A stretch of 64,000 nucleotides of DNA, taken from the NCBI GenBank assembly GCA_050250135.1, contig JBFWPF010000010.1:780-64779 (forward strand). The letters are read 5' to 3'. Origin of the DNA: Parachlamydiales bacterium (GTDB lineage: Bacteria > Chlamydiota > Chlamydiia > Chlamydiales > JAFEGQ01). Made by a program: the position numbers and the translations under genes. The notes under the pieces are model-generated. The model was not told where the DNA came from. It did not search any database and saw only the letters and a program-made list of their open reading frames with translations. Shown piece by piece: positions 3,224 to 41,300 of the stretch (position 1 is the stretch's first letter; each line of letters begins with the position of its first letter).

Positions 3224-3826
3224 TCAATTACAGGGGGTGTCGGGGTTCTGGGGGAGATTGGGGGGGACCCGGCGTAAGGGACAGGGGTTCTGGCCGGGGC
3301 GGCTAGTGGCGTAGCCGATAAGGTTGCCCATCTGGTCAAGAACCGCCTGGGCCTGGGGAGCGAGCTCAGGGCTCTCCCGGATGATCAGGGTCAGGGCCGC
3401 CCTATCCTGCTCGAAAAGGAGAGGAAAGGTCCCCTGGACCAGCTGGCGGTAGAGGATCGGGCTGCGCCAGGTATAGGCAAGCTGCTGCTCAAAGCGGCGG
3501 ACCCGGTAGCCCGCCTGGGCGATCTGGGTCTCAAAAAGCTCCCTCTGCAGGCGCTCTGCCCGCTCCTGAAGGCGTCCCGCCTCTACGGCAATGGTGTTGT
3601 AGTCGCGAGCGAACTCCTCCACCCGCCGATCAAATGGGGTAGCACAGGCGGTCTTGTCGAGGGGGCGGTCGGGCCCGGTAAACGGACACAAGGAAGAGCA
3701 GACTAGGAGGAGAACTCCTGCTCGAGCGACGGAAAGAGGGGATCTTTGCGGATAGGGTCGAACTCCTCCCGCTTGAGCGCCTCCTCGATGCCGTCCATCT
3801 TCTCCTGCTTGGCGCACTTGAGCCAC
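3224..3826 (-). CDS. Hypothetical coiled-coil protein; start unresolved
   Basis: The ORF is open from 3913. The region downstream of the M50 stop (3224-3700) encodes a plausible helical protein (EEFARDYNTIAVEAGRLQERAERLQRELFETQIAQAGYR...). The only in-frame starts are ATG 3913 and GTG 3826/3817, all overlapping the upstream gene by more than 110 nt. Confidence 0.35.
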   Translation of the reverse strand: MAQVRQAGEDGRHRGGAQAGGVRPYPQRSPLSVARAGVLLLVCSSLCPFTGPDRPLDKTACATPFDRRVEEFARDYNTIAVEAGRLQERAERLQRELFETQIAQAGYRVRRFEQQLAYTWRSPILYRQLVQGTFPLLFEQDRAALTLIIRESPELAPQAQAVLDQMGNLIGYATSRPGQNPCPLRRVPPNLPQNPDTPCN

Positions 3827-4836
3827 CCCACCGCTGGTCTTACTTCCCGTTTCGCAGCATGGGAGAGCGCGTTGATAAAGGCAATATCCCCACTGGGGAA
3901 GTTCTGGAAACACTCCTTGCCACTCGAGATCGCCTCATCATAGTCCCGGTTCTTGTAGGCAAGCTTCTGGTAGAGGAGGAGGGCCTCAGGGCTGAGCCGC
4001 TTGCGGATCTCCTTGAGGTAGGTATAGGCCTTCCCCTGCTCCCCCTTGTCAGCCCAAAGGGTAGCGGCCGATTCGGTAGCCGCAGCAAAGATCAACCCCT
4101 TACCCGTAGAATTGCGGGCCTGCTCATAGAGGCTTAGGGCCTCATCGGTGTGCCCCTGCTCCCTCATCTCTTCGGCTCGGCGGAAGAGATTCTGTACCTT
4201 CTCATCCACGTCCCGGTCGGTAACGTCGCGGACCGAGCGCCAGCCCCGAAACGACTCGAAGGTGAGGAGGAAAAAGAGGGCCCCCGCTAGGAACCAGCCA
4301 ACGATAAAAAAGGCGATCGTGGCAGCAGCGCCCAAGACCATGCTGGCAATGAGGGCGATCGAGAGGCCGCGGGCCCCAAAGATCCCCTCCAGAATCACCC
4401 GCATGAGGTGCCCCCCGTCAAGAGGGAGGACGGGGAAGAGGTTCAAGAGGGTCCAGATCAGATTGACAAATGCCCCCCCCTTGATGGCGATCTGAGCCAG
4501 AAGGGGCCAGTGGGCGGCCGTTGGAAGGAGGGCATAGCACCCCAAACCGAGGAGAAGGCCAAAAAGGGGGCCGTTAAATATTATAATAAACTCTTTAATT
4601 TTTCCGAGCTTGGGCCCCTCGCGGGCGGTAAGGCCGCCGAACATCATGATCTGGATCCGGACGCTCTGCTTGAAGGCCATTGCAGTGAGGGCGTGGCCGA
4701 GCTCGTGAACGATGATCGAGACGAGGATGACGAGGGCCATGACGATGGTCCCCCAGAGGGACTCGGTATAGAGAAAGCCGATCAGGAGGGCAAAGACCCA
4801 GAAGAGGGGGTGGATCGAGAGGGAAAACCGCTTCAT
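3703..4836 (-). CDS. M50-family (site-2 protease-like) zinc metalloprotease with a C-terminal TPR-like domain
   Basis: HELGH (HExxH) in a TM helix, a second M50 motif [12 protein letters not shown], multiple TM helices, and a C-terminal ~150-aa helical repeat region (ALSLYEQA..., [15 protein letters not shown]). Confidence 0.8.
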
Positions 4837-20545: not shown

Positions 20546-20647
20546 CGCATAGCCGATAATCCTAAGCGCTACCCCACGATGGCTAAGCAGCTCTCCGACC
20601 AGCTGGATGATACATTTGAGAATCTGCTCGTTAGAAGCGCTCTTCAA

Positions 20648-20804
20648 CCCCTGATTGCGACCTATCGTCCGGGGGGCGTGGCAGATGGTGGTCAGATAGT
20701 GTACATCGTGACGAGGCCAGGTCTTTAGACCTGGGTGAGGAGGGATGTACACTAAATGGCCGCCAGCTGTCGATGCCGTCTAGACGATAGGTCGCAATCA
20801 GGGG
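20648..20804. repeat. 157-bp foldback MITE-like element, copy 1
   Basis: Terminal inverted repeats CCCCTGATTGCGACCTATCGTC... / ...GACGATAGGTCGCAATCAGGGG. Internal nested palindromes AGTGTACATC/GATGTACACT and CCAGGTCT-TT-AGACCTGG. Near-identical in length and sequence to 36516-36672. Confidence 0.85.
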
Positions 20805-20809
20805 TTTAA

Positions 20810-20850
20810 CCCCTGATTATGACCTATCGTCCAGAGGGCATCTGCATGGG
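20810..20850. repeat. Solo end (half copy) of the 157-bp MITE family
   Basis: CCCCTGATTATGACCTATCGTCCAGAGGGCATCTGCA matches the reverse complement of the right end of copy 2 (TGTAGATGCCCTCTGGGCGATAGGTCGCAATCAGGGG). Confidence 0.6.
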
Positions 20851-23003: not shown

Positions 23004-23109
23004 AGGGGGGCGAGCATTCTCCTCTCAGAGCGGCTAATCGATTGCACGCCCTAGTCTACCTGAAGTGGGGCACCGCGATCAACGGTAGGTCCTTAGAAAG
23101 TTAGGGCAG

Positions 23110-23151
23110 CCCACTGCCGATGCCCTAGGAATGATAGGTTGCAATCAGGGG
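23110..23151. repeat. Partial (right-end) copy of the 157-bp MITE family overlapping the htpG stop
   Basis: ...GATGCCCTAGGAATGATAGGTTGCAATCAGGGG aligns with ...GATGCCCTCTGGGCGATAGGTCGCAATCAGGGG of copy 2. Confidence 0.55.
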
Positions 23152-27690: not shown

Positions 27691-29322
27691 ATGCGGATCT
27701 ATGCTGCCCAGCTCAACCCCACCATCGGCGCCCTTAAGGGCAATACTCAGAAGATCCTCGCTGCGATCGACCGGGGACGGGAGCAGGGGGCCGACCTGAT
27801 CCTTCTCCCCGAGCTGGCCATCTCGGGCTACCCCCCCGAGGACCTCCTCCTCCTCGAGTCCTTTGTCCCTGCCTGCGAGGCGATGCTAGAGCCCATTATC
27901 GAGGCCTCCAAGGGGCTTGCGGTGGTAGTGGGTTTGCCCCGGCGGGCGACCAAGGGGGAGAAGCCCTTCCACAACAGTGCGGCCATCATAGAGGAGGGGA
28001 AGCTCCTTGGTTTTCAGGACAAAACCTGCCTCCCTACCTACGATGTCTTCGACGAGCGGCGCTACTTTGAGCCCTCCCCAAAAAACCAAGTCTGGAAACT
28101 CCGAGGGGAGAGGGTTGCGATCACCATCTGCGAAGATATCTGGGGATGGGAGGAGCCGATTGTGCTGGCCGACTACCGCCGCCACCCGGTCGAGGAGCTG
28201 GCCTCCGCTCGTCCTACCTTCCACCTCAACCTCTCCGCCTCGCCCTACAGCTTTGAGAAATTCCCGATGCGCCTCGAGGCCCTCCAACGGGCCTCCCAGC
28301 ACCTTAAGGTCCCCTCCCTCCTCTGCAACCAGGTCGGCGGCAACGACAGCCTGATATTCGATGGGCACACCTTCCTTATCGACCGGGAGGGGCGGGTGCT
28401 TGCCCGAGCCAAGGGCTTTGCGGAGGATAACCTCCTGATCGACACTCGCAAACTCCCCCCTCCCCTCGTCCTAGAAGAGAACCCTTATGGCGAGCTCTAC
28501 CGTGCCCTGGTGATGGGGGTACGCGATTACTTTGAGAAGAGCGGCTTTAAAACGGCCTGCCTCGGCCTCTCGGGGGGGATCGACTCGGCCCTTGTTGCCG
28601 CCATCGGCGCCGACGCCCTTGGCCCTCAGAACATCCTGGGGCTACTGATGCCCGGCCCCTACAATCCCCCCTCTTCCCTCGAGGATGCACAGCTGCTCGC
28701 CCAAAACCTCGGCATCAAAACCCTTACCCTGCCCATAGGGCCCCTCTACGAGACCTTTCTCACCACCCTCACCCCCCATTTTGAAGGGAAGGCCCCCGAC
28801 ACCACCGAGGAGAACCTCCAGGCGCGGATCCGGGGCATGCTCCTGATGGCGATCTCCAACAAGCATGGGCACATCGTCCTCAGCACTGGAAACAAGAGTG
28901 AGATGGCGACCGGCTATGCGACCCTTTATGGCGATATGTGTGGAGGGCTTGGTGTTCTCAGCGATGTTCCAAAGATGAAGGTCTACGCCCTCTGCAAACA
29001 CCTCAACCGGGAGGGGGAGCGGATCCCCCACAATATCCTGGTCAAGCCCCCGTCGGCCGAGCTTGCCGAGGGGCAGGTCGATGCCGATACCCTCCCCCCC
29101 TACTCGATCGTCGACCAGGTCCTCGAGGATTATGTCCAGCGCCACCTCTCTCCAGAAACGATTGCCGAGAGGCGCTCTCTCCCCTTTCCGATCGTGCTCG
29201 ACCTCGTCAAGCGGATCCACCGAAACGAGTACAAACGGCGGCAGGCTCCCCCCGGCCTTAGGGTCACCGAGAAGGCCTTTAGTGTCGGCCGCCGCTTCCC
29301 CATCGTCCAGAAATGGTCCTAA
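27691..29322 (+). CDS. nadE: Glutamine-dependent NAD+ synthetase (nitrilase domain + NAD synthase domain)
   Basis: 543 aa. N-terminal CN-hydrolase (LPELAISGYPPEDL, ICEDIW) and PP-loop LGLSGGIDSAL. Confidence 0.9.
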   Translation: MRIYAAQLNPTIGALKGNTQKILAAIDRGREQGADLILLPELAISGYPPEDLLLLESFVPACEAMLEPIIEASKGLAVVVGLPRRATKGEKPFHNSAAIIEEGKLLGFQDKTCLPTYDVFDERRYFEPSPKNQVWKLRGERVAITICEDIWGWEEPIVLADYRRHPVEELASARPTFHLNLSASPYSFEKFPMRLEALQRASQHLKVPSLLCNQVGGNDSLIFDGHTFLIDREGRVLARAKGFAEDNLLIDTRKLPPPLVLEENPYGELYRALVMGVRDYFEKSGFKTACLGLSGGIDSALVAAIGADALGPQNILGLLMPGPYNPPSSLEDAQLLAQNLGIKTLTLPIGPLYETFLTTLTPHFEGKAPDTTEENLQARIRGMLLMAISNKHGHIVLSTGNKSEMATGYATLYGDMCGGLGVLSDVPKMKVYALCKHLNREGERIPHNILVKPPSAELAEGQVDADTLPPYSIVDQVLEDYVQRHLSPETIAERRSLPFPIVLDLVKRIHRNEYKRRQAPPGLRVTEKAFSVGRRFPIVQKWS

Positions 29323-29435
29323 TTTCGACCCTATGGAGCGCTCATTTGGCTTGATTTTTGACCATACAGAGCGCCTATTTGCCTTGATTTTTAACCACCT
29401 TAACCTAAAAACAGCCTTGATTTTTAACCATATTT
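29308..29435. repeat. Array of ~4 degenerate tandem 33-34-bp repeats starting in the last codons of nadE
   Basis: Units: CAGAAATGGTCCTAATTTCGACCCTATGGAGCGCT / CATTTGGCTTGATTTTTGACCATACAGAGCGCCT / ATTTGCCTTGATTTTTAACCACCTTAACC... / ...AGCCTTGATTTTTAACCATATT. The first ~60 bp recur at 30921-30979. Confidence 0.8.
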
Positions 29436-29468
29436 TGCATAAGGTGATGAAAAACAGGGGATTGAATC

Positions 29469-30812
29469 GTGAAGCGCCTGATCCATGCCGATTTACGTAA
29501 GTGGAAAGGGAAGCCCAACCGTAAGCCTCTGCTTATCCGTGGCGCTAGACAGGTCGGAAAAACTCACGCAGTACGCACCCTAGCGGAGAGCTTTGAGGAC
29601 TTTGTGGAACTGAACCTGGAGAACGACCCTAAAGCCTGCACAGTCTTCGAGCCCGATCTAAAGGCTGATCGGATTCTCAGGGATTTAACCATCCACCTGA
29701 AGCGTCCCATCACGCCCGGAAAAACACTGCTCTTTATTGATGAAATTCAAGCGGCCCCCAAGGCTATTATTGCCCTCAGGTATCTCTATGAAGAGGTACC
29801 CGACCTGCATGTGATTGCTGCAGGATCGTTGCTGGATTTTGCGATTCAACAGGTCGGCGTCCCCGTTGGGCGGATAGAGTTCCTTTACATGTACCCCCTC
29901 TCCTTTGCAGAATTTCTCGTATCGATGGGCGCAAGTGGCCTATGCGGCCAAGTTCTAGAGCATCCAATCGACACTCCCATGTTCCCCCTGTTCCATGACC
30001 AACTGATTCGAATGCTCGGTGAATATCTGGTCATTGGTGGAATGCCAGAGGTGGTCAAAGGTTGGCGCGACACCCAAGATCCTGAACACTGCTTAACCAT
30101 TCAACATCGCATTCTTACCGCCTACCAGTATGATTTTCCCAAATATGCCAAGCAATTTCAGCTCAAGTATCTCGAGATTTTATTCCGCCAGCTACCGCAC
30201 TGGACTGGACAACGCTTCAAGTACTCCCAAATAGGCGAGGGTTATCGAAAACGGGAATTGGAGCCCTGCTTAGAGCTGCTTCGGACGGCTGGAATGGTTC
30301 ATCAGGTTATGCATACGGCCGGCCAAGGAATTCCTATTGGCTCTGATGTCAGATTTGATATCTTTAAGACCCTATTCCTAGATGTCGGCCTCACCCAAGC
30401 CCAGTTAGGCCTCGATCTAGCCGACTATTTTCTGAATCCCCAGGAAGCGCTTGTGAATAGCGGTGCCATTGCTGAAGCCTACGTAGGACAAGAACTGCTT
30501 GCCTATTCTCCCCCTTATAAAAAAAGTGATCTCTTTTACTGGGAAAGGTTGGTACGGTCCAGCGCAGCAGAGGTCGACTATCTCCACCAAGCGGGTCCGC
30601 ACATCCTACCCATCGAAGTGAAAGGCGGAAGAGGGAACACACTCCGATCACTCCACCGATTCCTCGAAACCCACCCCAAAACCCCCTACGGAGTCCGTTT
30701 TTCTACCCGCAACTACTCGAAGCATGACAACATCCACTCCTATCCCCTCTATGCAGTGATGCAATTCGCCAAATGGGATGGGCAGGAGGCTTGGGAGGCG
30801 CTCCTCAGCTAA
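29469..30812 (+). CDS. AAA+ ATPase with DUF4143-type C-terminal region carrying a PD-(D/E)xK-like motif (COG1373 family), paralogue 1
   Basis: 447 aa, GTG start. Walker A GARQVGKTH, Walker B LLFIDEIQ, C-terminal AEVDYL...ILPIEVKGG (D...ExK). Confidence 0.85.
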   Translation: MKRLIHADLRKWKGKPNRKPLLIRGARQVGKTHAVRTLAESFEDFVELNLENDPKACTVFEPDLKADRILRDLTIHLKRPITPGKTLLFIDEIQAAPKAIIALRYLYEEVPDLHVIAAGSLLDFAIQQVGVPVGRIEFLYMYPLSFAEFLVSMGASGLCGQVLEHPIDTPMFPLFHDQLIRMLGEYLVIGGMPEVVKGWRDTQDPEHCLTIQHRILTAYQYDFPKYAKQFQLKYLEILFRQLPHWTGQRFKYSQIGEGYRKRELEPCLELLRTAGMVHQVMHTAGQGIPIGSDVRFDIFKTLFLDVGLTQAQLGLDLADYFLNPQEALVNSGAIAEAYVGQELLAYSPPYKKSDLFYWERLVRSSAAEVDYLHQAGPHILPIEVKGGRGNTLRSLHRFLETHPKTPYGVRFSTRNYSKHDNIHSYPLYAVMQFAKWDGQEAWEALLS

Positions 30813-30885
30813 GTGGCAGAATTTCTTAGCTTAAACTTGAGGACGTCGCCAAAGCCAACGTCTTCCCAGCCACTACTTCCCCATG

Positions 30886-30979
30886 ACAAAAATGGTCGTG
30901 ATTTCGACCATCTAAGACATCAAAATGGTCGCTTTTTCGACCATATGGAGCATCCATTTGGTTTGATTTTCGACCACAG
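30886..30979. repeat. Array of 3 tandem 33-bp repeats, each with an ATGGTCG-N6-CGACCAT palindrome or its variant
   Basis: ATGGTCG-TGATTT-CGACCAT at 30892-30911 and ATGGTCG-CTTTTT-CGACCAT at 30925-30944 (33-bp period). The third unit is CCATTTGGTTTGATTTTCGACCAC. Confidence 0.85.
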
Positions 30980-31045
30980 ATTCTGCAATATGTTCATATT
31001 TAGAGAATTAGAAATATGGAGTGAGAAGGTATCGGAATGTCACGA

Positions 31046-31876
31046 TCAGCTGAGGACATCGGCGATATCAGAAACACCTAACTTGAGCATCAGGAGGCGG
31101 TCGAAGCCGACGGCGACGCCGCAGCAGTCGGGAAAGGGGCCAAGGGGCATCACCGTTTCGGGATAGACCTCCTTGCCTAGGGCCCCCCTCAGCTGGTTTT
31201 GCTCCAAAAGGCGCCGCTTGTGCTCTACCGGATCGGTCAGCTCATCATAACCATTCGCTAGCTCCATCCCCTGGAAAAAAAGCTCAAACCGCTCACTACC
31301 CCGCTCGCTTACCTTAGCCAGAGCGGCCTGCGAGGGGGGAAAATGGGTCACGATGTAAAAGGGCTCCCCTGATAGCTGCGGCTCAATTTTGGTCGCGAGG
31401 AGGTAGTTCTGCTGCTCTTCCGAAAGGGCGCCAGGGTCGATCCCCGCATGCCTCTGAAAGGCCTCCGAGTAGCTCATCACCTCGAGGGGGCGCTCTCCCA
31501 CAAACAGAGCGGCAAGGGCAGCGGTCTCCTCCCACATCTGCTGCAGGGAAAAGCCGAGGCGGTACCACTCGATCATCGCAAATTCGGGGCGGTGGCGCCT
31601 GCCCGACTCCCCATCTCGGAAGACATGGGAGAGCTGGTAGATGTCGCTAAGGCCCGCTTTTAAGAGGTTCTTCATCCCATATTCGGGCGAGGAGTGGAGG
31701 TACCACCGCTCCCCCATCACCTCGGCAGCAATCAGGTCGATATGGGCGTCGATGGAGGGGTCGGGTGAGAGGGCGGCGCAGTCGACCTCCATCACCCCCC
31801 GCTCATGGAAAAACTCCCGGACGCAGCGGAGCATCCGGGCCCGCTCCTTCAAATTACTTAGAGGAGCGGGAGACAT
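31046..31876 (-). CDS. epmA: Elongation factor P--(R)-beta-lysine ligase (EpmA/PoxA/GenX)
   Basis: Class II aaRS-like core. Aligns with E. coli EpmA from NLKERARMLRCVREFF (E. coli NLLKRAAIMAEIRRFF) to the C-terminal GVAVGFDRLLML. Start chosen at MSPAPL (31876); ATG 31912 is also possible. Sits directly downstream of efp. Confidence 0.85.
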   Translation of the reverse strand: MSPAPLSNLKERARMLRCVREFFHERGVMEVDCAALSPDPSIDAHIDLIAAEVMGERWYLHSSPEYGMKNLLKAGLSDIYQLSHVFRDGESGRRHRPEFAMIEWYRLGFSLQQMWEETAALAALFVGERPLEVMSYSEAFQRHAGIDPGALSEEQQNYLLATKIEPQLSGEPFYIVTHFPPSQAALAKVSERGSERFELFFQGMELANGYDELTDPVEHKRRLLEQNQLRGALGKEVYPETVMPLGPFPDCCGVAVGFDRLLMLKLGVSDIADVLS

Positions 31877-32426
31877 ACTCGCCAGTGCGGGTGTCGATCT
31901 TGACCACCTCATGCTGGTCGATAAAGATGGGCACCTGAACCTTAGCTCCCGTATCGGTAATGGCGGCCTTAAGGACCCGGCCCGACGCCGTATCCCCTTT
32001 GACCCCCGGCTCGGTCTCCACGATCTCCATATCGATGAAGGTAGGGGGGTTGACCAGCACTGGAGCCCCCTTGTAGGAGATCACCTCGTAGAGGAGATCC
32101 TCCTTAAGCCACTGCTCCGAATCGGCGATCACCGCATGGGGGACTGTGAGCTGCTCATAGGTCTGGTCATCCATAAAGACCGCATCCTGCCCATCCCGGT
32201 AGGAGAAGCGCATTTGAGCCTCAGCGACATCGGCTAGCTCGATCTTCTCACCTGACTTGTAGGTCCGCTCAATGACCCGTCCGGTTAGAAGCCCTTTCAG
32301 CTTAACCCGAGTGAAGGCCTGCCCCTTGCCCGGCTTGACAAAGTCGACCCCTACAATGACCCAGGGCTGTCCATCTACCTCGACCTTGAGCCCCGCCTTA
32401 AACTGGTTGGTTGCTATCTGCGCCAT
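31854..32426 (-). CDS. efp: Elongation factor P
   Basis: FVKPGKGQAFTRVKLK loop with the modifiable lysine, and C-terminal KIDTRTGEYVSR. Start at MAQIATNQF. Confidence 0.9.
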   Translation of the reverse strand: MAQIATNQFKAGLKVEVDGQPWVIVGVDFVKPGKGQAFTRVKLKGLLTGRVIERTYKSGEKIELADVAEAQMRFSYRDGQDAVFMDDQTYEQLTVPHAVIADSEQWLKEDLLYEVISYKGAPVLVNPPTFIDMEIVETEPGVKGDTASGRVLKAAITDTGAKVQVPIFIDQHEVVKIDTRTGEYVSRSSK

Positions 32427-32541
32427 CCCCATCCTCCGATTATAAGGGGGAGATCATACCCCCGATTATGACCTCTTGTAAAGAGACGATAGACCCCCAT
32501 CACGACTTGCCCCCATTAGGGCCCGTCGCTAAGATGGGACC

Positions 32542-33357
32542 ATGGATGCCCATAGCCCCGAAATTGCCGCGCATCAGGAGAAGATCGCCCGGGATACCCT
32601 CGAGCGCTACTCGGGCTCCCCGATCAACAAATTTCAAAATTACCTTATCTTAACTAACTTTGGCCGCTACGTCGATTACTTTGCCGATACGCGGGGCCTT
32701 GAGGTTTTCGAGGGGTCGATGTTCAAGGTGGCCCACAGCCCCGAAGAGGACATCAGTGTCCTCGACTTTAAGATTGGCTCCCCGGCGGCAGCCCTGGTTG
32801 TCGACGTTTGCGCCTTCCTCCCCTTCCAAGCGGTTCTCCTCCTCGGGATGTGTGCCGGCCTTCGCCGCCACTACCGGGTCGGCGATTACTTTGTCCCCAT
32901 CGCCGCTATTCGAGGTGATGGGACGAGCGACTTCTACTTTCCCCCTGAGGTTCCGGCCCTTGCCAACTTTGTGGTGCAGAAGGCGGTGACCGATGTCCTC
33001 CAGACCAAGGAGATCGAGTACCACATTGGGATCACCCACACGACCAACAAGCGGTTTTGGGAGTTCAACGACAAGTTCAAGGAGCGGCTGAAGGAGAACC
33101 GGGCCCAGGCCCTTGAGATGGAGTGCGCTACCCTCTTCCTCGCCAGCTACCGCCACAAGCTCCCCCTCGGCGCCCTCCTCCTCGTCTCCGATCTCCCCTT
33201 GGCGCGGGATGGGATCAAGACCAAGGAGAGCAGCAAGTTCGTCTTTGACACCTACATGGCCGATCATGTCGAGATGGGGGTAGAGATCCTCCATAGGACG
33301 AAGAGCATGAAGAAGCGGCATGTCAAGGGGATCCGCCGCGAAGCGATGGATGGGTGA
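32542..33357 (+). CDS. amn: AMP nucleosidase-like protein (PNP/UDP phosphorylase family, short form)
   Basis: 271 aa. GMCAGL, IRGDGTS and LEMECATLF motifs of the nucleoside phosphorylase-I fold. Layout is like the catalytic domain of AMP nucleosidase. Confidence 0.7.
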   Translation: MDAHSPEIAAHQEKIARDTLERYSGSPINKFQNYLILTNFGRYVDYFADTRGLEVFEGSMFKVAHSPEEDISVLDFKIGSPAAALVVDVCAFLPFQAVLLLGMCAGLRRHYRVGDYFVPIAAIRGDGTSDFYFPPEVPALANFVVQKAVTDVLQTKEIEYHIGITHTTNKRFWEFNDKFKERLKENRAQALEMECATLFLASYRHKLPLGALLLVSDLPLARDGIKTKESSKFVFDTYMADHVEMGVEILHRTKSMKKRHVKGIRREAMDG

Positions 33358-34097
33358 ACACCCTACTCTTCCTTATGGTGAGTCTCCATATCCTACCCGG
33401 CACTGGCCCCCGCACCCTCCTCCTCTTCCATGGCTATGGGGGGAGCCAAGAGATTGCCGACCAGATTCGCGCGGCCGATGTCACCGATGCTACCCTTGTT
33501 AGCTTCAACTTTCCCGACCACGACCTTACCGACTATGACCCCGAAAGGGCCACCTTTGGCACCCCAGGTGAGCTGATTCCTGCTCTGGAGGCCCTCACAC
33601 AGCTAATCGTGACCGAGGGCAGGCGCAATGTCGACCTCTACGGCTTTTCAGCAGGGGGCGGCGCCCTCATCAATCTGATCGCCCTGCTCAATAGCGACCG
33701 CTATCAGGTGGCCCACCGACAGGAGCTCCTCGAGGTGATCCAACAAGGTAGTATCTTGCTCGACGCTCCCTTCAAATCGATCGAAGAGATCATCGCCTTT
33801 CGGGGCCCATCGGAGGAGTTTTCCCTAATGGCGGAGCGGTATGCGCGTAACCGGATGAGGCCAATCGACTCCCTGGAGGGGTGGAAGGGGCTAAGATTAA
33901 ATGTGATTATCTATTTCGAGAGGCCCGATGAAGTCCTCTCCAACCGGGACGACTCCCTCTTTGTCGAGCGGCTCCGGCAGGTAAACAAAGACGGAACAAA
34001 CACGATCCTTTTCGGCACCACCGGTGGCCACAACGCCCTCCACCCTGCTCTCTGGAGCGCTTACCGTCAAGCGTCAAAATCTCTATCTCGTTCATAA
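33354..34097 (+). CDS. Alpha/beta-hydrolase fold protein
   Basis: 247 aa. LLLFHGYGG oxyanion region and nucleophile elbow GFSAG. 4-nt overlap with amn. Confidence 0.6.
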   Translation: MNTLLFLMVSLHILPGTGPRTLLLFHGYGGSQEIADQIRAADVTDATLVSFNFPDHDLTDYDPERATFGTPGELIPALEALTQLIVTEGRRNVDLYGFSAGGGALINLIALLNSDRYQVAHRQELLEVIQQGSILLDAPFKSIEEIIAFRGPSEEFSLMAERYARNRMRPIDSLEGWKGLRLNVIIYFERPDEVLSNRDDSLFVERLRQVNKDGTNTILFGTTGGHNALHPALWSAYRQASKSLSRS

Positions 34098-34177
34098 CCA
34101 ACCATTTTTGATTGACCAAAAGACGATCGATCGTAAAATGGTCGCGACCAAAATACGATCCATCGTAAAATGGTCGT
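34098..34177. repeat. Tandem 32-bp repeat x2 (29/32) plus a leading variant unit, ending 3 nt before the ATPase-2 start codon
   Basis: GACCAAAAGACGATCGATCGTAAAATGGTCGC (34114-34145) / GACCAAAATACGATCCATCGTAAAATGGTCGT (34146-34177), preceded by CCATTTTTGATTGACCA. Contains ATGGTCG|CGACCAA at 34137-34150. Confidence 0.85.
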
Positions 34178-34180
34178 AAG

Positions 34181-35389
34181 ATGAGAAGACGAGTCTATAA
34201 CGCTGCTATTGAGGCCCAGTTTGAGGAAGACCGGCAGATGCTCTTCCTAATGGGGCCACGTCAGGTAGGAAAGACGACAGCTAGTTTGCTTTCAGGTCAC
34301 GACGATGAGGACCTGTACTATTTCAATTGGGACGACCTAGAACAAAGAGCTCTATTAACAAAAGGGGCCTCTGCCATTGCTGAGGAGGTCGATCTCGAGG
34401 CGCTCAGAGAGCCCAAGCCTGTGATCATTTTTGATGAAGTTCATAAGGCACCCCATTGGAAAGCCCTTCTTAAGGGGTTTTTCGACCTATATGGAACGCT
34501 AGCCCATATCCTTGTGACCGGCAGTGCCCGCTTAGATGTCTACAAGAAAGGGGGAGATAGCTTGATGGGGCGCTATTTCCGTTACCGCCTTCACCCTTTC
34601 TCGGTTGCCGAACTTGTCAACCCTACACTGCCCAAAGGAGAAATTCGATCGCCAAAATCGCTCCCGAAGGCCGACTGGGAGCGTCTATTGACCTTTGGGG
34701 GATTCCCCGAACCCTATTTGAATGGGACGAGGCGCTTTTACAACCGATGGCGCACCATGCGCAATCACCAGGTCTTCCGCGAGGACTTGCGGGACCTCAG
34801 CCGGGTTCAAGAGCTTTCGCAGATTGAACTCTTAGCTGAACTGATGCGCCTGCAAGCGGGCTCTCTCACCAGCTATCACTCGTGGGCAACTCACGTCCGT
34901 ATCTCCTCCGATACCGTGCGCCGTTGGGTTGAGCTCCTACAATCGGTCTTCTATTGCTTTGCGATCCGCCCTTGGTCAAAAAACGTCGGGCGCTCCCTGC
35001 TGAAGGAACCAAAGTTCTATCTGTATGACTGGTCACTGGTCGATGACGAGGGGGCCCGCTTTGAGAATCTCGTAGCCTCTCACCTCCTAAAAGCGGTCCA
35101 TTTCTGGAGTGACTACGGCTTTGGAGAGTATGGCCTCTTCTATATCCGCACTAAGGAGAAGCGGGAGGTCGATTTTTGCGTCACAAAAGAGGGGAAACCT
35201 TGGATACTCGTCGAGGCCAAGGTGGGAAAGGAGAGGCTCTCTCCGCAGCTGGGCTATTTTCAGGAGAAGTTGGGGTGCCCCTATGCCTTTCAGGTGGTGC
35301 GCGATCTCCCCTATGTCAACAAGGACTGCTTTGCACAAGATCGCCCCCTCATTGTCCCCGCCAGAACATTCCTCTCGCAGCTGATTTAA
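34181..35389 (+). CDS. AAA+ ATPase with DUF4143-type C-terminal PD-(D/E)xK-like motif (COG1373 family), paralogue 2
   Basis: 402 aa. Walker A GPRQVGKTT, Walker B VIIFDEVH, C-terminal REVDFCVTKEGKPWILVEAKVG. Roughly half the residues are identical to paralogue 3. Confidence 0.85.
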   Translation: MRRRVYNAAIEAQFEEDRQMLFLMGPRQVGKTTASLLSGHDDEDLYYFNWDDLEQRALLTKGASAIAEEVDLEALREPKPVIIFDEVHKAPHWKALLKGFFDLYGTLAHILVTGSARLDVYKKGGDSLMGRYFRYRLHPFSVAELVNPTLPKGEIRSPKSLPKADWERLLTFGGFPEPYLNGTRRFYNRWRTMRNHQVFREDLRDLSRVQELSQIELLAELMRLQAGSLTSYHSWATHVRISSDTVRRWVELLQSVFYCFAIRPWSKNVGRSLLKEPKFYLYDWSLVDDEGARFENLVASHLLKAVHFWSDYGFGEYGLFYIRTKEKREVDFCVTKEGKPWILVEAKVGKERLSPQLGYFQEKLGCPYAFQVVRDLPYVNKDCFAQDRPLIVPARTFLSQLI

Positions 35390-35496
35390 CCTCTGATTAC
35401 ACGCTCCCATACACCTTGATCTACAGGTCTGGTCCCTTGCGTGTTATCGACCGGTTGTTAATAATGACTTTCTTAAACCAATGGAGGAATGTCGTT

Positions 35497-36432
35497 ATGG
35501 AGATTCTACCCTCCTCGTCTGAGTCGAGTGTACCCTACCGCACGCTACCGCTCGGCTACCCGGTCTTTAGCGTTGCCTTCAGTCCAGATGGGCTGATCCT
35601 CGCATCGGGAAGCACTGACCACAAGGTCCATCTATGGGACACCATAACATTGGAGGAAAAAGGCTCCCCACTCAGTGGGCACACCGGGACCGTCTGGTGC
35701 CTGGCCTATCACCCGCAAGGAACTCTTCTGGCCTCAGCAAGCGTGGACAAGACGATCCGCCTATGGGATATGGCAAGCAAAAAGGTGACGTTTGTCCTTG
35801 AGGGACACACAAGCTATGTCTACTGTGCGGCCTTCAGCTCCAATGGACAACTCCTCGCCTCTGCAAGTGAGGATAGGACGGTCCGCCTATGGGATACCTC
35901 CACCGGCAAGGAGTTGCCTTTCTCTCCGCTTGAAACGCATGAGAGCCCGGCCTGGAGCGTTGCGTGGGCCCACAACGGGAAGACCCTGGCCTCGGGAACC
36001 GGGATGGGAAAAATCCACCTCTGGGAGGCCGCAACAGGGAAAAAGAAAGGGGCCCCTGTGGAGGGACATACGGCCCCTGTCCAGAGCCTTACGTTCTATT
36101 CGGATGACCATACCCTCGTCTCGGGATCTGGCGACACCACCGTTCGTTTTTGGGATCCCTCCGCAGGGAAGGAGATCCCTCCTCCCATAACCTGGCATAC
36201 ATCTGGGGTCAACAGCATCGCCCTAGGCCATAGCGAAAAGATTCTAGCCTCAGGCAGTAACTATCCGACCATTGGCCTTTGGGACGCTACCACGAGAAAA
36301 GGCAAAAGGACCCTAAGCGGCCACACAGGTAGTGTTCAGTGCGTTGCTTTGAATCCTACAAGCACGACCCTCGCGTCGGCAAGCCTCGACGAAACGATCC
36401 GCCTCTGGGACATCAGCCACCTGCTAATTTAG
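35497..36432 (+). CDS. WD40-repeat protein
   Basis: ~311 aa with about seven repeats of ...LASGS.D.T(V/I)(R/H)LWD.... GGAGG lies 9 nt upstream of ATG 35497 (ATG 35464 is an alternative). The ORF-track start at 35176 overlaps the previous gene and is rejected. Confidence 0.85.
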   Translation: MEILPSSSESSVPYRTLPLGYPVFSVAFSPDGLILASGSTDHKVHLWDTITLEEKGSPLSGHTGTVWCLAYHPQGTLLASASVDKTIRLWDMASKKVTFVLEGHTSYVYCAAFSSNGQLLASASEDRTVRLWDTSTGKELPFSPLETHESPAWSVAWAHNGKTLASGTGMGKIHLWEAATGKKKGAPVEGHTAPVQSLTFYSDDHTLVSGSGDTTVRFWDPSAGKEIPPPITWHTSGVNSIALGHSEKILASGSNYPTIGLWDATTRKGKRTLSGHTGSVQCVALNPTSTTLASASLDETIRLWDISHLLI

Positions 36433-36515
36433 AGCTGTTACAATCTTATCCTGGGGGTGGCTAGTTATTTCCCTTCTTGCCCGACCCTGAGTATCCGTAC
36501 CCGTTAGACCTTTTA

Positions 36516-36672
36516 CCCCTGATTGTGACCTATCGTCCAGGGGGCGCGGCAGATGGTAGTCAGATAGCGCACATCGTGACGAGGCCAGGTCTTTAGACCT
36601 GGGTGAGGAGGGATGTCCGCTAGATGGCCACCAGCTGTAGATGCCCTCTGGGCGATAGGTCGCAATCAGGGG
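36516..36672. repeat. 157-bp foldback MITE-like element, copy 2
   Basis: CCCCTGATTGTGACCTATCGTCC...GGCGATAGGTCGCAATCAGGGG. Same length and internal CCAGGTCTTTAGACCTGG hairpin as 20648-20804. Confidence 0.85.
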
Positions 36673-36685
36673 TTTTATCCTGGGT

Positions 36686-36796
36686 CTAGGAGATCGCCTT
36701 CGTGACGAGCTCTTCGAGGTGGGCAGGGCCCTCGATTTTGGGGAGCATGAGCTCGCGATGGCTCTCCCTCTTCTCAATGGAGAGGGTGAGCTTCTC
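36686..36796 (-). pseudogene. Displaced duplicate of the last ~37 codons of mfd
   Basis: The minus strand reads GEKLTLSIEKRESHRELMLPKIEGPAHLEELVTKAIS*. The intact mfd ends LEKSTLSIEKRESHRKLMLPKIEGPAHLEELVTKAIS*. The central ~62 nt have a single mismatch. There is no upstream mfd sequence. Confidence 0.85.
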
Positions 36797-36908
36797 GCCC
36801 CTGATTGTCCCTGCCAGGTACGTGTTCACGAGGGGGAGTCCTCTCACTAGGGGCGGGGGCTACCCACGTGAATATGTACCCAGCCAGGGCCTTCTTGTCT
36901 CAGTTGGT

Positions 36909-38120
36909 CTAGACCAGTTGAGAGAGAAAGGAGCGGGCGGAGACGATGCGAGGGGTCGGATCAAGAAAGCAGGTCTGGTGACTATAAGGCTGATCAAAGA
37001 CAACCTGGAGGGCATATTGGGGTCTAAGCTGCATTTGAAAGTGCGCAAGTGAGGGGCTGATCTGCCGCGAATTGCCTAGCTTTACCTCGACTAGCATCCA
37101 GGGCTTTCCATTGTACGTGACCAAGAAGTCAACCTCTCGCTTCTCCTTGTCCCGGACATAGTGAAGGGTAAATACCCCCATCCCACAGTCGGTCCAAAAA
37201 TCGGTCGCCTTAAGAAGGAAACAGGCCACCATATTTTCGGCCCTCGCTCCAGGATCACTGAGAAGTGACCAATCGGTCAGGTAGTACTTGGGCTCTTTGA
37301 GAAGAGATCGGGCAACACTATGCGCATAGGGCCTTACCTCAAAACAAACGTAGAGTGAAATGAGGTGTTTGAGCCACTGCATGACAGTGGTATGGCTGAT
37401 CTGTACCTTACGAGCTAGCGAGGCATAGCTGGTCAAAGAACCGACCCCAGCCCGCAACATCTGAATGAGCAACTCCATCTGGGAAATTTCCCGAATTCGG
37501 GTTAGGTCACGCAGGTCCTCATGGAGCAGTTGATCCCACCGGTGGAGCGACCACTGGGTATGGTAGGCCTCTTCCCCTCGTAGGAGGGGATCGGGAAATC
37601 CCCCAAATCGCCAGAGGGCCTCGTAGAGGGAGTCTTCGATTTCACAAGGGGCGGGCCGAACGGCAATGGGTGTTACCTCGGGCTCCACAAGCTCTCTAAT
37701 GGTGAAGGGATGAACGTGGTGGCGAAAGTACCGCCCCATCAAGCTGTCGCCCCCTTTCTGGTAGACATCGAGGCGGGCGCCTCCCGTCACCAAAATATGG
37801 GCTAGGTTAGGATAGAGATCATATAACCCCTTCAAGAAGAGCTTCCACGAGGGATAACGGTGGATCTCATCAAAAATAAGGAGAGGGACCGGCTCTTCCA
37901 TCAGGCCAAGCTTAGCCTCCTGCCCTAGCGCTCTCCCCCCCTGCTGGATCTTGTCACGGTCGTTAGGATCATCCCAGGTATAATAGAGGACTCGAGGCCA
38001 GTCCTCCCCTACGTTGACACCTAGCGTGGTCTTCCCCACCTGCCGAGGCCCCATGACAAAGAGCATCTGCCGGTTTCTCTGGAAGTGGCCGGTAAAGACC
38101 TGGTGGTAAAAGCGGCGCAT
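36909..38120 (-). CDS. AAA+ ATPase with DUF4143-type C-terminal PD-(D/E)xK-like motif (COG1373 family), paralogue 3
   Basis: 403 aa from ATG 38120 (AAGGAG lies 7 nt upstream; the ORF-track TTG at 38141 is less likely). Walker A GPRQVGKTT, Walker B LLIFDEIH, REVDFLVTYNGKPWMLVEVKLG. The stop codon lies inside the palindrome TGGTCTAGACCA. Confidence 0.85.
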   Translation of the reverse strand: MRRFYHQVFTGHFQRNRQMLFVMGPRQVGKTTLGVNVGEDWPRVLYYTWDDPNDRDKIQQGGRALGQEAKLGLMEEPVPLLIFDEIHRYPSWKLFLKGLYDLYPNLAHILVTGGARLDVYQKGGDSLMGRYFRHHVHPFTIRELVEPEVTPIAVRPAPCEIEDSLYEALWRFGGFPDPLLRGEEAYHTQWSLHRWDQLLHEDLRDLTRIREISQMELLIQMLRAGVGSLTSYASLARKVQISHTTVMQWLKHLISLYVCFEVRPYAHSVARSLLKEPKYYLTDWSLLSDPGARAENMVACFLLKATDFWTDCGMGVFTLHYVRDKEKREVDFLVTYNGKPWMLVEVKLGNSRQISPSLAHFQMQLRPQYALQVVFDQPYSHQTCFLDPTPRIVSARSFLSQLV

Positions 38121-38154
38121 AACGGGCTCCTTCACCCACAAGTGTACCAGAAAT

Positions 38155-38316
38155 CTTCATTTGGTCGGATTTTGCCCCAAATGCCGAAATTCCGGGGATT
38201 TTGTCGGGTAATTTCTGACCAAATGAAGGTTTTTTCAGGGTTGATAATCAGCAACTTAATGAATTTTTTTTCCTTTTCCTGACTTTTTGAGTGCCTTGTT
38301 TCATTTGGTCGGATTT
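38155..38316. repeat. Structured spacer between ATPase 3 and mfd: 17-bp direct repeats plus a 12-bp inverted repeat
   Basis: TTCATTTGGTCGGATTT at 38156-38172 and 38300-38316. CTTCATTTGGTC (38155-38166) is inverted as GACCAAATGAAG (38217-38228). Confidence 0.85.
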
Positions 38317-38318
38317 CT

Positions 38319-41300
38319 CTAGGAAATGGCTTTGGTCACCAGCTCTTCGAGGTGGGCAGGGCCCTCGATTTTGGGGAGCATGAGCTTGCGATGGCTCTCC
38401 CTCTTCTCTATGGAAAGGGTCGACTTTTCCAGCTTTAGGGCGGTGATCTGGAAGCGAGAGGCAACGGTGCGGATCCGCATCAGGTGGTAAAACCACAGGG
38501 CCTCCTCTGGGGGCGTGCCGAAACGGTCCTTGAGTTCATCAAAGAGGTCGTCAACATCGGCTTCGGTAGGCGCATCCCCAAAACGGCTGTAGAACTCGAG
38601 GCGGAGGGTCGATTCGGGGATGTAATGCTCGGGAAGGTAGGCGCGCTGAGGGAATTCAAGCTTGACCTCGGTGAGAGTGTGGGGCGTTTTCCCTTGGAGC
38701 GACTGGACCATTCTTTTGAGCATCTTGCAGTAGAGGTTGAAGCCGATGGCGGAAACATGGCCCGACTGCTCCGTGCCCAGGATGGAGCCGCCGCCGCGGA
38801 TCTCAAGGTCGCGCATGGCGACTTTAAAGCCGCCGCCATGAGGGCCTAGCTGCTCGAGGACATCGAGACGCTCCTTTGAGACGGCGCTGGGAGGGCGCTT
38901 TTTGGAGGTGAGGAAGTAGGCATAGGCCCTGCGGTTCCAACGGCCCACTCGGCCGCGCATCTGGTAGAGGTCGGCAAGGCCATGCCGATCGGCCCGCTCA
39001 ACGATAATGGTGTTGGCGTTGGGGACATCAAGGCCGTTTTCAACGAGGGTAGTGGCAACGAGGATCTGAATCTTACCGGTGCGGAAGGCATGGAAGATGG
39101 TGTCGAGCTCATCGCCCGACATCTGCCCATGGGCAACCCCGATGCGGGCTTGCGGGAGGTCTTGCCGGAGGCGGTCGGCCACGCCGTAGATGGTCTCAAC
39201 GCGGTTGTGGATAACGAGCGCCTGGCCATCACGGGCAAGCTCGCGGAGGAGGGCGTTTTTGGTTTTCTCCGCATCCTCCTCGCCAACGTGAGTCTTGATG
39301 GGGAGGCGGTCTTGGGGAGGGGTGGCGATGATCGAGAGGTCGCGACCCCCCATGAGAGCGAGGTAGAGGGTGCGGGGTATGGGCGTTGCCGAGAGGGTGA
39401 GGCAGTCGACCCCTGCTCTAAAAGCCCGGATCTTCTCTTTGACCCGAACGCCAAACCGCTGCTCCTCGTCGACGATAACGAGGCCAAGGTTGGAGAAGTG
39501 GACGTCGCTGCTGATGATGCGGTGGGTGCCGATCAGGATGTCGAGGGAGCCTTCAGCAAGGTGCTTGAGGGTGGCCTTTTGTTCCTTGGGGGTGCGGAAG
39601 CGGGAGAGGACACCGATCCGAACGGGAAAGTTCTCCATCCGCTGGGAGAAGTTATCGAAGTGCTGCATGGCGAGGACGGTGGTGGGGACGAGTATCGCCA
39701 CCTGCTTGCCTCCGTCGATGACCGCCTTAAAGGCGGCCCGCATCGCCACCTCGGTCTTGCCATAGCCGACATCGCCGCAGACGAGGCGGTCCATCGGTTT
39801 GGGCTGCTCCATATCCTGCTTAACGTCGCGGATCGCCTTGAGCTGGTCGGCCGTCTCGACGTAGGGGAATTCCGATTCGAAGAGGAGGGTCTCCTCGCCA
39901 TCGGGTGGGAAGGCAAAGCCGCCGGCAATCTCCCGCTCGGCATGGGCCTTGAGCATCTCTTGAGCGTATTTTCGGATCGCCTCTTCAGTCTGAGCGCGGA
40001 CCCGGGCCCACTTGCCGCTCCCCAGGGTGTGGAGGACCGGTTTCTCCTCTTTGCCGCCAACATATTTGTTGACCAGGTAGGACTGCGCGAGGGGGACAAA
40101 GAGTTTTCCTTTAGAGGCATACTCGATGGCCAGGTACTCGGCGGTGTTCCCGTCGGTGTCATCCTTTTTGACAATGCCGAGGTAGCGGCCGATGCCGTGG
40201 TGGAAGTGGACGACGAGATCGCCGTCGGTGTAGTCGACCATCTCCTGGGGGGCGCTGCTGTAGACCGCCCGCTTTTGCTCGCGGCGGACCTTGTAGTGGT
40301 GGGTCAGCTCTGTGATAGGAAGGAGGGTGAGGCCATCCAAGGTAAAACCGCTTGAGAGGTACCCCTCGTGAACAGCGGCGACCTTGGTAATCCCCATCTG
40401 CTCGAGGAGGGCGCGGAGCCGCTTTTCTTCGCGGGAATTTTCGCAGATGAGATGGAGCTCGGTATTGTCGGGAATCCCCTCCGAGAGGGTGTGGAAGGGG
40501 TTTTTCCACCGGTAGGCCGAGAGGCGCTTGTCGAAGAGGGGGAAGGTGAGCGGATGGGGGGAGGCGCCCGAAGAGTAGTAGTCGACGCCGGGAGGAACTT
40601 CGATGTCACCGAGGGCGTCGATCGGAGTCGCGGGCCAGTAGAGTTTCTGGTAAGGGGCGGCTTTGTCCATCCAGTCGGCGAAGGCCTTGCCTCCGAGGCC
40701 GAGCGCGACGAGGCGGTCTTCAAGAGCGAGGAGGTCATCGAAGGCGATGCAGGTGTTCTCACCGAGGTAGTCGAAGAGGGTGGCGCTCTTGTCGCCGGTA
40801 AACTCATCGACTAGCGTAAGAGTGAGCTCCTTGACCTCGCCAGTTGAGCGCTGACTCCCCGGATCGAAGGGGCGGATCTTCTCTATCTCGTCTCCAAAGA
40901 ACTCGATCCGGTAGGGGGCAAGGCTGCTTAAGGGGAAGAGGTCAACGATCCCGCCGCGCACGGCAAACTCCCCCTTATCGGCGACAACAGGGCGGCGGAC
41001 AAAGCCGGCTCCCCCTAGCTCTTCGATGAGCCACTCGGGAGGGTATTCTTGCCCCACAGTGAGGTGGAGATCCCCCTTCTGGAACTGGTCGGGGGGAATC
41101 ATGGGTTGGAGGGCCGCCTGGACCGGAGCGAGGAGGATCTGAGGGGTCTTGGCCGAAAGGAGGACCTTGAGGACCGAGTAGCGATCCCCGACCACATCGG
41201 GGCTGGGGGCGATCCCCTCAGAAGGGAGGTTCTCCCAAGCGGGAAGCTCGTGGACATTTTTTTGAAAGTAAAGGAGATCCTCATAGAGGCGCCCCTCCCG

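Follow-up and report, generated by a model that had tools for sequence, protein, structure and literature searches.

The 64-kb stretch of Parachlamydiales DNA analysed here, referred to throughout as the window, contains within 9 kb three intact open reading frames (ORFs) for members of one family of AAA+ ATPases with a C-terminal PD-(D/E)xK nuclease-like domain. P1 (29469..30812, forward strand) encodes 447 amino acids (aa) and its start is matched by the identical NCBI protein P0121. P2 (34181..35389, forward strand) encodes 402 aa and P3 (36909..38120, reverse strand) encodes 403 aa. The ATG of P3 at 38120 is backed by full-length homologues; a TTG seven codons upstream of it has no such backing. 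The genes that separate and flank the three copies are nqrF, nadE, epmA, efp, a PNP_UDP_1-family gene (labelled "amn" in synteny strings), an alpha/beta hydrolase gene, a WD40 gene and mfd, with no recombinase among them. The search for further family copies was limited to the window, and no other copy or fragment was found elsewhere in its 64 kb. The contig, 64,974 nt long, is from a metagenome-assembled genome (MAG); its closest elongation factor P (EF-P) sequences come from Chlamydiae MAGs, at no more than 63% identity. An obligate-intracellular type of genome is plausible for this contig.

The proteins and their family

Pfam identified AAA_14 (E-values of 4e-23 to 1e-25) and DUF4143 (4e-25 to 6e-24) in P1, P2 and P3, and only these, with a winged helix-turn-helix (wHTH) region also assigned in P1. 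No transposase domain of the DDE, HUH, serine or tyrosine types was found in the three proteins. Neither a transposase nor an integrase is encoded in the 9 kb, in line with the initial annotation, which had described a transposase-free group of three AAA+/PD-(D/E)xK family members with a D...ExK motif. That annotation had also listed Walker A and Walker B motifs as shared by all three. This holds for Walker A, which is GARQVGKT in P1 and GPRQVGKT in P2 and P3. For Walker B (hhhhDE) the xFDE form is present in P2 (IIFDEV) and P3 (LIFDEI) but not in P1, which has LLFIDEI. The C-terminal EVD(Y/F)...E(V/A)K motif that had been described is present in all three proteins. The residues D331, E345 and K347 (P3 numbering) and the Walker residues are invariant across 31 relatives. 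P2 and P3 are 52% identical over their full length, while the identity of P1 to either is 24–26% and is confined to the ATPase domain, in agreement with the earlier estimate of about half and with the greater distance given to P1.

Each protein matches seven PADLOC hidden Markov models (HMMs) for the defence candidate PDC-S01, with best E-values of 9e-136 for P1 (PDLC04788, the long PDC-S01 subfamily), 5e-46 for P2 and 6e-46 for P3 (both PDLC04790). By these matches P1, P2 and P3 belong to COG1373, as named in the initial annotation, which is the PADLOC candidate PDC-S01, a known, abundant and uncharacterised family. DUF4143/COG1373 is listed among the PD-(D/E)XK families with its function unassigned (PMC3424549). 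PDC-S01 was proposed through "guilt by embedding" in BREX, DISARM and type I restriction-modification (RM) loci (bioRxiv 10.1101/2024.01.29.577857). It is reported to be the fourth most common defence candidate in prokaryotes, with an ATPase and a PD-(D/E)xK domain in one fusion protein and with validation pending; single-gene PDCs in general are reportedly enriched in host-dependent bacteria, including the Chlamydiota (PMC12988326). The genes in the window resemble PDC-S01 in domain architecture, in the strength of the HMM matches and in being single-gene, multi-copy and patchily distributed. They differ from it in their location among housekeeping genes, rather than embedded in a defence system.

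Family members are present on 272 of 72,556 plasmid records, among which are plasmids of Rhabdochlamydia and Bandiella. The family is rare in phage records: IMG/VR contains only relatives of 22–27% identity, and INPHARED gave nine matches among 50,697 GenBank phage records, all of them metagenome-derived 'Bacteriophage sp.' from human faeces. The P3 relative on plasmid NZ_CP104165.1 (72184–73385) of the Rickettsiales symbiont Candidatus Bandiella numerosa has 47% identity. It is annotated as two genes, for an AAA family ATPase and a DUF4143 protein, and was matched in two pieces, which may mean that the gene has split or is decaying.

An AlphaFold2 model of P3, with a predicted local distance difference test score (pLDDT) of 83, resembles Orc1/Cdc6, DnaA, IstB and Apaf-1 in its ATPase, lid and winged-helix regions. 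Structure prediction of the C-terminus had been suggested as a check on the nuclease assignment. A separate AlphaFold2 model of the last 122 residues (pLDDT 94) gives a predicted nuclease core of alpha-beta-beta-beta-alpha-beta form, with helices at 9–30 and 75–84 and strands at 36–42, 48–55, 58–66 and 88–93 of the model. The D...(D/E)xK residues that define PD-(D/E)xK enzymes are conserved and located on strands 2 and 3. The best PDB matches to this model are McrC, Bax1, YaeQ, VRR_NUC, Bse634I, SfsA and MGME1, all of them weak (best E of 1e-2), and a sequence search of the PDB found no solved structure related to the family. The predicted domain layout combines an Orc1/Cdc6-like AAA+ ATPase with a winged-helix region and, at the C-terminus, a PD-(D/E)xK nuclease domain.

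This layout has likenesses to two groups of characterised proteins. The McrBC-type NTPase-coupled nucleases also combine an AAA+ NTPase with a PD-(D/E)xK domain, and McrC is the best C-terminal structural match. The window proteins differ from these in being single polypeptides, in having an Orc1/Cdc6-like rather than a McrB-like ATPase together with a winged-helix region, and in having neither an N-terminal modified-DNA reader nor detectable sequence similarity. Orc1/Cdc6, DnaA and IstB share the predicted whole-chain fold of AAA+ domain, helical lid and winged helix. From these the window proteins differ in their extra C-terminal nuclease domain, and no sequence-level membership was found.

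Promoters and phased boxes

The predicted promoter/operator of P2 (34112..34176, forward strand) consists of two 32-nt tandem units, GACCAAAA-N14-TAAAATGGTC. Within it there is a -35/-10-like pair, and the ATG follows the end of the last -10-like hexamer by 9 nt. The same box architecture is repeated upstream of P0070, which is 69% identical to P2 and its nearest relative. Upstream of P1 there is an array (29310..29441, forward strand) of four 33-nt units, each with CCTTGA-N5-RACCA, the first of which overlaps the nadE stop codon (29320–29322). The P3 upstream region (38142..38318, reverse strand) has three AAATCCGACCAAATG boxes, of which those at 38158–38172 and 38302–38316 have the same orientation and the one at 38211–38225 is inverted. 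This region is homologous to a gene-less spacer in the sister genome GCA_021772495.1 (locus L196).

Phased boxes were scored as an 11-mer recurring in direct orientation at a spacing of 31–34 nt. They were found at 26 of 71 family loci, against 30 of 1399 control upstream regions (P = 1e-21), and the spacing is exactly 32 nt in 23 of 33 cases. The sequence of the boxes depends on the clade, being GACCA-type in the chlamydial relatives of P2 and P3 and GACTATT- or GACAATAT-type elsewhere. The P1 subfamily has CCTTGA-N5-RACCA arrays of three or four units, 33 nt apart. Such arrays are also upstream of the P1-type genes at L200, L201 and L202, and among 203 loci the pattern is confined to those of P1 type. 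In most cases the last -10-like hexamer ends 6–10 nt before the start codon, so that a leader would be very short or lacking.

Two other roles for the boxes were rejected. A general terminal structure, with boxes at both ends, does not fit the presence of a downstream box at just 3 of 28 loci, P1 and the L196 orthologue of P2 being exceptional. A genome-wide dispersed repeat does not fit the distribution in the window, where the motifs are found only beside the three genes. The boxes are probably autoregulatory operators. The family gene is the only gene that travels with them and its product has a winged helix, therefore the protein may bind the boxes and regulate itself.

Location beside repeated phased DNA boxes is a further likeness to Orc1/Cdc6 and DnaA, and the boxes and iterons of replication origins are an analogue. 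The window proteins could be host-domesticated DNA-binding regulators or chromosome-maintenance factors, Orc1/Cdc6-like, acting through the phased boxes. The predicted fold, the conservation of the boxes, the housekeeping neighbours and a rate of evolution of P2 as slow as that of mfd are all consistent with such a role. However, the family is patchily present in related genomes, has several divergent copies per genome, retains its nuclease triad and is found both on the 272 plasmid records and embedded in BREX, DISARM and type I RM loci, and domestication is considered improbable.

Origins of the three copies and the repeats that bracket two of them

The nearest relatives of P3 are P0002 and P0003, with 61–64% identity. 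These two proteins and P0070 are from one other chlamydia-like assembly, in which they occupy three unrelated housekeeping neighbourhoods. The chlamydia-like assembly GCA_041166445.1 (loci L082, L083 and L195) has at least three copies of the P2/P3 clade, none of them at the positions seen in the window; their settings are cpn60/pantothenate kinase, dapB-asd-aminotransferase and ribonucleotide reductase/signal peptidase. A phylogeny, which had also been suggested as a check, was made as a neighbour-joining tree of 55 leaves, rooted with P1. P2 and P3 were sisters in none of 100 bootstraps, the smallest clade containing both had at least 12 of the 55 leaves, and each was nearer to proteins of other genomes. 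Local paralogue expansion, by tandem or segmental duplication and subsequent divergence, might be suggested by the presence of three family members within 9 kb. It is hardly credible given the tree, the closer relatives elsewhere, the different PADLOC subfamily of P1, and the presence of P2 without P3 in L196. The earlier proposal that the copies had propagated locally fails on the same bootstraps and subfamily assignment. As judged from the tree and from gene order, the three copies were acquired independently and are not local duplicates.

The gene order mfd...amn-efp-epmA-nadE is kept in two more distant chlamydial MAGs (L002 and L005), and no homologue of P1, P2 or P3 is present in their syntenic mfd...nadE region. 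In L196, whose Mfd is 83% identical to that of the window, a convergent P2 orthologue with 84% aa identity lies 465 nt beyond mfd. Neither P3 nor the WD40 gene is present in this mfd-P2 interval. The rate of non-synonymous change (dN) between P2 and this orthologue is 0.106, equal to that of mfd (0.109), with synonymous change (dS) saturated. This comparison identifies P2 as an older resident, vertically inherited under purifying selection. The initial annotation had doubted simple vertical inheritance of the genes. That doubt is upheld for P3 by its absence from L196, and by the repeats at P1 and P3, but it does not apply to P2.

The L196 spacer between mfd and the P2 orthologue (8159–8623) contains three kinds of box with no gene behind them in that orientation. 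These are a 36-nt box 97% identical to the P2 promoter box, a gene-less stretch homologous to the P3 upstream region that includes an identical 16-nt box, and a pair of GACTATT-type boxes with a spacing of 32 nt. All of these resemble what earlier cassettes would have left behind at one docking site. The site downstream of mfd has evidently undergone cassette turnover. The WD40 gene (35497–36432), between P2 and the P3 cassette, encodes a eukaryote-like beta-propeller of 311 aa (Pfam WD40, E of 1e-68). Given its absence from the mfd-P2 interval of L196, it looks like another insertion into this variable spot. Look-ups of the WD40 and NadE proteins of the window for strain-level empty sites returned the same organism only.

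P3 is bracketed by a 112-nt direct repeat of the mfd 3' end, with 88% identity between the copies. The copy at 38318..38429 (reverse strand) is the functional 3' end of mfd and resembles the attL arm of an attachment (att) site; its last 8 codons are of foreign origin. The attR-like copy at 36685..36796 (reverse strand) is displaced and has the last 36 codons and stop of mfd, with a 3' tail that is the ancestral or native version. The 112 nt from the P3 stop to the displaced copy (36797..36908, reverse strand) are a spacer that forms the 3' part of the cassette. The two arms differ at 9 synonymous and 2 non-synonymous codons (dN 0.037, dS 0.59, dN/dS 0.06), and plain decay of one copy is very unlikely (P = 5.5e-5 with a neutral model, 3e-3 with a mixed model). 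In a three-way alignment with L196 the differences flank an identical central block on both sides. Over the last eight codons the displaced copy shares five of six variant positions with L196, and the functional copy none of the six.

Differences on both sides of the block and the hybrid tails are what a single reciprocal crossover of a circular molecule with the resident mfd end would produce. On the alignment of its arms, the P3 cassette was acquired by reciprocal recombination with a foreign allele, with a circle as the presumed transfer intermediate. Since the circle would have carried a diverged mfd end, the cassette would have resided earlier behind mfd in another, related lineage. Two other origins were rejected for this scar. 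Decay of an initially identical target duplication does not account for changes that are mostly synonymous and clustered, nor for a functional tail that is the derived one. One-anchor homology-facilitated illegitimate recombination predicts differences on one side of the crossover, and here both sides differ.

At P1 the left direct repeat (29288..29398, forward strand) contains the last 35 nt of nadE and boxes. The right direct repeat (30869..30987, forward strand) contains a degenerate copy of the nadE 3' end and three gene-less box units. The arms 29288–29398 and 30869–30977 align over 111 nt with 67% identity, including a 54-nt core with 81%. The left arm contains the real nadE 3' end, and the nadE copy in the right arm is frame-shifted. 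It is likely that P1 arrived in the way that P3 did, by circular-cassette integration. No flanking direct repeat was found at P2, where only the two 32-nt promoter/operator boxes are present. The insertion scars that had been reported at each gene are therefore present at P1 and P3 only.

The repeats could be assembly artefacts of a strain mixture, given that the contig is from a MAG, that Logan contigs from this sample are interrupted close to these regions and that a second assembly diverges at a palindromic repeat beside the scar. However, a 3,019-nt stretch of a second NCBI assembly, covering both mfd repeat copies, matches the window with 100% identity, and the displaced copy begins mid-gene, which a chimeric join to a complete second allele cannot yield. 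It is therefore unlikely that the mfd scar is an artefact. Comparable repeats are also found around relatives in unrelated metagenomes, and as an explanation of the flanking repeats in general mis-assembly is very improbable.

Across the family, bracketing direct repeats of at least 40 nt were sought at 60 loci, comprising the window and metagenomic and genomic relatives. They were found at nine of these, against 1 of 321 size-matched control ORFs taken mechanically from mixed taxa (Fisher P = 3e-7). The repeats of the nine loci are 42–170 nt long and 67–96% identical. One of four further loci, L201, has a flanking repeat too. At L083, L130 and L201 the repeats include the 3' end of the neighbouring gene, and at L083 the first box of the cassette gives the aminotransferase a new 8-codon tail. 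The flanking repeats are locus-specific, with no mobile sequence in common. No terminal inverted repeats bracket P1, P2 or P3 and no short target duplications of 2–15 bp were found there, the repeats being direct instead. Neither the cassettes nor the flanking DNA of the inspected loci showed a recombinase gene.

Such repeats raise the question of whether the family moves itself. The initial annotation had put forward nuclease-driven homing as possible, and more generally the encoded AAA+/nuclease might cut a target and drive its own copying or insertion, by homing or by a new transposase-free route. The lack of transposase and integrase in the cassettes and the 9 kb is consistent with this, as are the enrichment of locus-specific direct repeats around the family and the position of insertions at or within the 3' ends of mfd, nadE, an aminotransferase gene and a LuxR-type gene. 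Gene-less box remnants, in L196 and downstream of P1, suggest that the same sites are reused. Classical homing, however, leaves no target duplication, and the copies are neither alike (52% and about 25% identity) nor all mobile, P2 being fixed at one locus with a dN like that of a housekeeping gene; homing therefore fits poorly. In comparison with homing endonuclease genes, P3 is absent after mfd in L196, yet a P3-type promoter remnant is present there. P1 and P3 are free-standing intergenic genes with direct repeats of 54–112 nt, and their scars fit circular-cassette recombination. At P3 the scar is explained by recombination of diverged homologous segments with no need for a special nuclease, and neither a nuclease target nor terminal inverted repeats were found. 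Self-propagation is therefore regarded as unlikely. The sequences compared here support mobility of the cassettes, and they are no demonstration of self-driven homing.

Recombination could alternatively be directed from elsewhere. The cassettes would then be integrase-less, in the manner of cis-mobilisable elements (CIMEs), and the repeats would be att sites for a tyrosine or serine recombinase whose gene lies elsewhere in the genome or on a helper element. Hybrid attL/attR-like arms and an mfd 3' end supplied by the cassette match integrase-mediated insertion at the 3' ends of genes. Against this, the targets vary between loci, so that many integrases would be required, the repeats are long and imperfect and range from 42 to 170 nt, and the inspected flanks contain no recombinase. 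The diversity of targets in particular makes an integrase acting in trans unattractive, and it is rated as distinctly unlikely.

A cassette model and other features of the region

The explanation that best accommodates these findings, with a probability put at roughly 0.55, is that P1, P2 and P3 are three independently acquired single-gene PDC-S01 cassettes encoding a conflict nuclease, and that P3, and likely P1, came by circular-cassette recombination. Each gene would travel with its own promoter, overlapped by subfamily-specific boxes 32–33 nt apart, to which the protein would bind through its winged helix, repressing its own expression. The protein would otherwise be an ATP-gated DNA nuclease acting in genetic conflict, as a defence or an addiction module. 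A circular cassette would bring a second version of the 3' terminus of the adjacent housekeeping gene; for P3 this circle, of about 1.63 kb, would consist of the diverged mfd end, the boxes, P3 and the 112-nt spacer. Reciprocal recombination with the resident gene end, in a Campbell-type integration, would restore the gene and leave the displaced copy downstream. Catalysis might come from the RecA of the host, from a trans-acting recombinase or from the cassette protein.

Several points weigh against this explanation. The Campbell-type model is built on one well-resolved case, P3, and one outgroup genome, and it leaves the first duplication at a new site unexplained. Flanking repeats are present at only about 15% of family loci, and the controls for them were mechanical ORFs from mixed taxa. 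The similarity of the C-terminal model to solved nucleases in Foldseek is weak (best E of 1e-2), the binding of the boxes by the protein is deduced from their co-occurrence, and PDC-S01 is a defence candidate only by guilt by embedding; the neighbours of P1, P2 and P3 in the window are housekeeping and not defence genes. For the P3 gene itself, loss in L196 instead of gain in the window is possible, since a P3-type promoter region is present there without P3. Loss in L196 would not account for the foreign mfd tail.

Among known mobile elements, the P3 cassette has likenesses to those that duplicate the end of a gene. Phage 21 and e14 insert in icd and give the target gene a replacement 3' end. 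The P3 cassette resembles these and the CIMEs in its duplicated gene 3' end, its mostly synonymous differences and its hybrid attL/attR-like arms. It differs from them in its size of about 1.6 kb with no integrase, and the targets used by the family vary. As in integrative elements with att sites, the bracketing repeats include the 3' end of the target (112 nt at mfd, 111 nt at nadE); unlike those elements, there is no site-specific recombinase in the cassettes or inspected flanks. The minimal mobile elements of Neisseria are cassettes exchanged by homologous recombination between conserved flanking genes. The cassettes described here are likewise recombinase-free and positioned between conserved genes, at loci whose content varies among relatives. 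A double crossover leaves no duplication, however, whereas a single reciprocal crossover with a circle is proposed here. Insertion sequences and transposons differ in all of the features sought, there being no transposase, no terminal inverted repeats and no near-identical copies within the window.

PDC-S01 may alternatively be a minimal mobile element in its own right, consisting of the gene and its boxes, whose protein binds the boxes, promotes excision of the element as a circle and promotes its insertion at or inside the 3' ends of genes. The target duplications of about 40–170 bp would then be made without transposase or integrase. This is an unlikely reading of the same scars. If true, it would explain the abundance of PDC-S01 among prokaryotic defence candidates, and a protein catalysing its own movement would define a new class of mobile element. 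If movement is not self-catalysed, the cassettes are an ordinary but informative case of exchange between chlamydia-like symbionts.

The papers found by the literature search give no account of flanking-repeat scars or phased boxes for this family. What is added here is the anatomy of the cassettes, with phased operators and recombinase-free repeats that carry neighbouring 3' ends, which makes the biology of the family testable. The cis element, with its boxes, fixed 32–33-nt phase and near-leaderless promoter, predicts sequence-specific binding and autoregulation. The signature of mobility is a recombinase-free cassette bracketed by local repeats of 40–170 nt, often with the 3' end of a neighbouring gene. 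P2 has been retained in an intracellular bacterium under purifying selection that matches the selection on mfd, an argument that the gene is worth its cost.

A palindromic dispersed repeat of about 160 nt, resembling a miniature inverted-repeat transposable element (MITE), is present at 36515–36673 and 20646–20805. The two copies are 89% identical, with partial copies at 20805–20846 and 23105–23151. It has 31-nt terminal inverted arms (ACCCCTGATTGTGACCTATCG...), and one copy directly adjoins the displaced mfd fragment. Its terminal 11-mer, CCCCTGATTGT, is also found at 36799–36809 in the P3 spacer, near the 36796/36797 junction. A Logan contig and the second NCBI assembly both break or diverge at this repeat. 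Locus L198 (GCA_050174135.1, contig JBFXKE010000260.1) has an identical mfd-P3-mfd' segment. Past the palindromic repeat it has an AbiEii toxin gene (3519–4385, Pfam E of 4e-28) in place of WD40-P2. This junction represents either a defence-island variant specific to one strain or a chimera joined at the dispersed repeat. The P3 protein of GCA_050174135.1 is labelled 'Candidatus Obscuribacterales', which suggests that the assembly is mis-binned.

A tRNA or non-coding RNA integration site was also rejected, as no tRNA gene is present in the window and the Rfam scan of the region gave a single match, below threshold and at chance level. The longest ORFs of epmA (31046–31912, reverse strand) and efp (31854–32432, reverse strand) overlap by 59 nt at 31854–31912; the real start of epmA is probably further downstream than that of its longest ORF.

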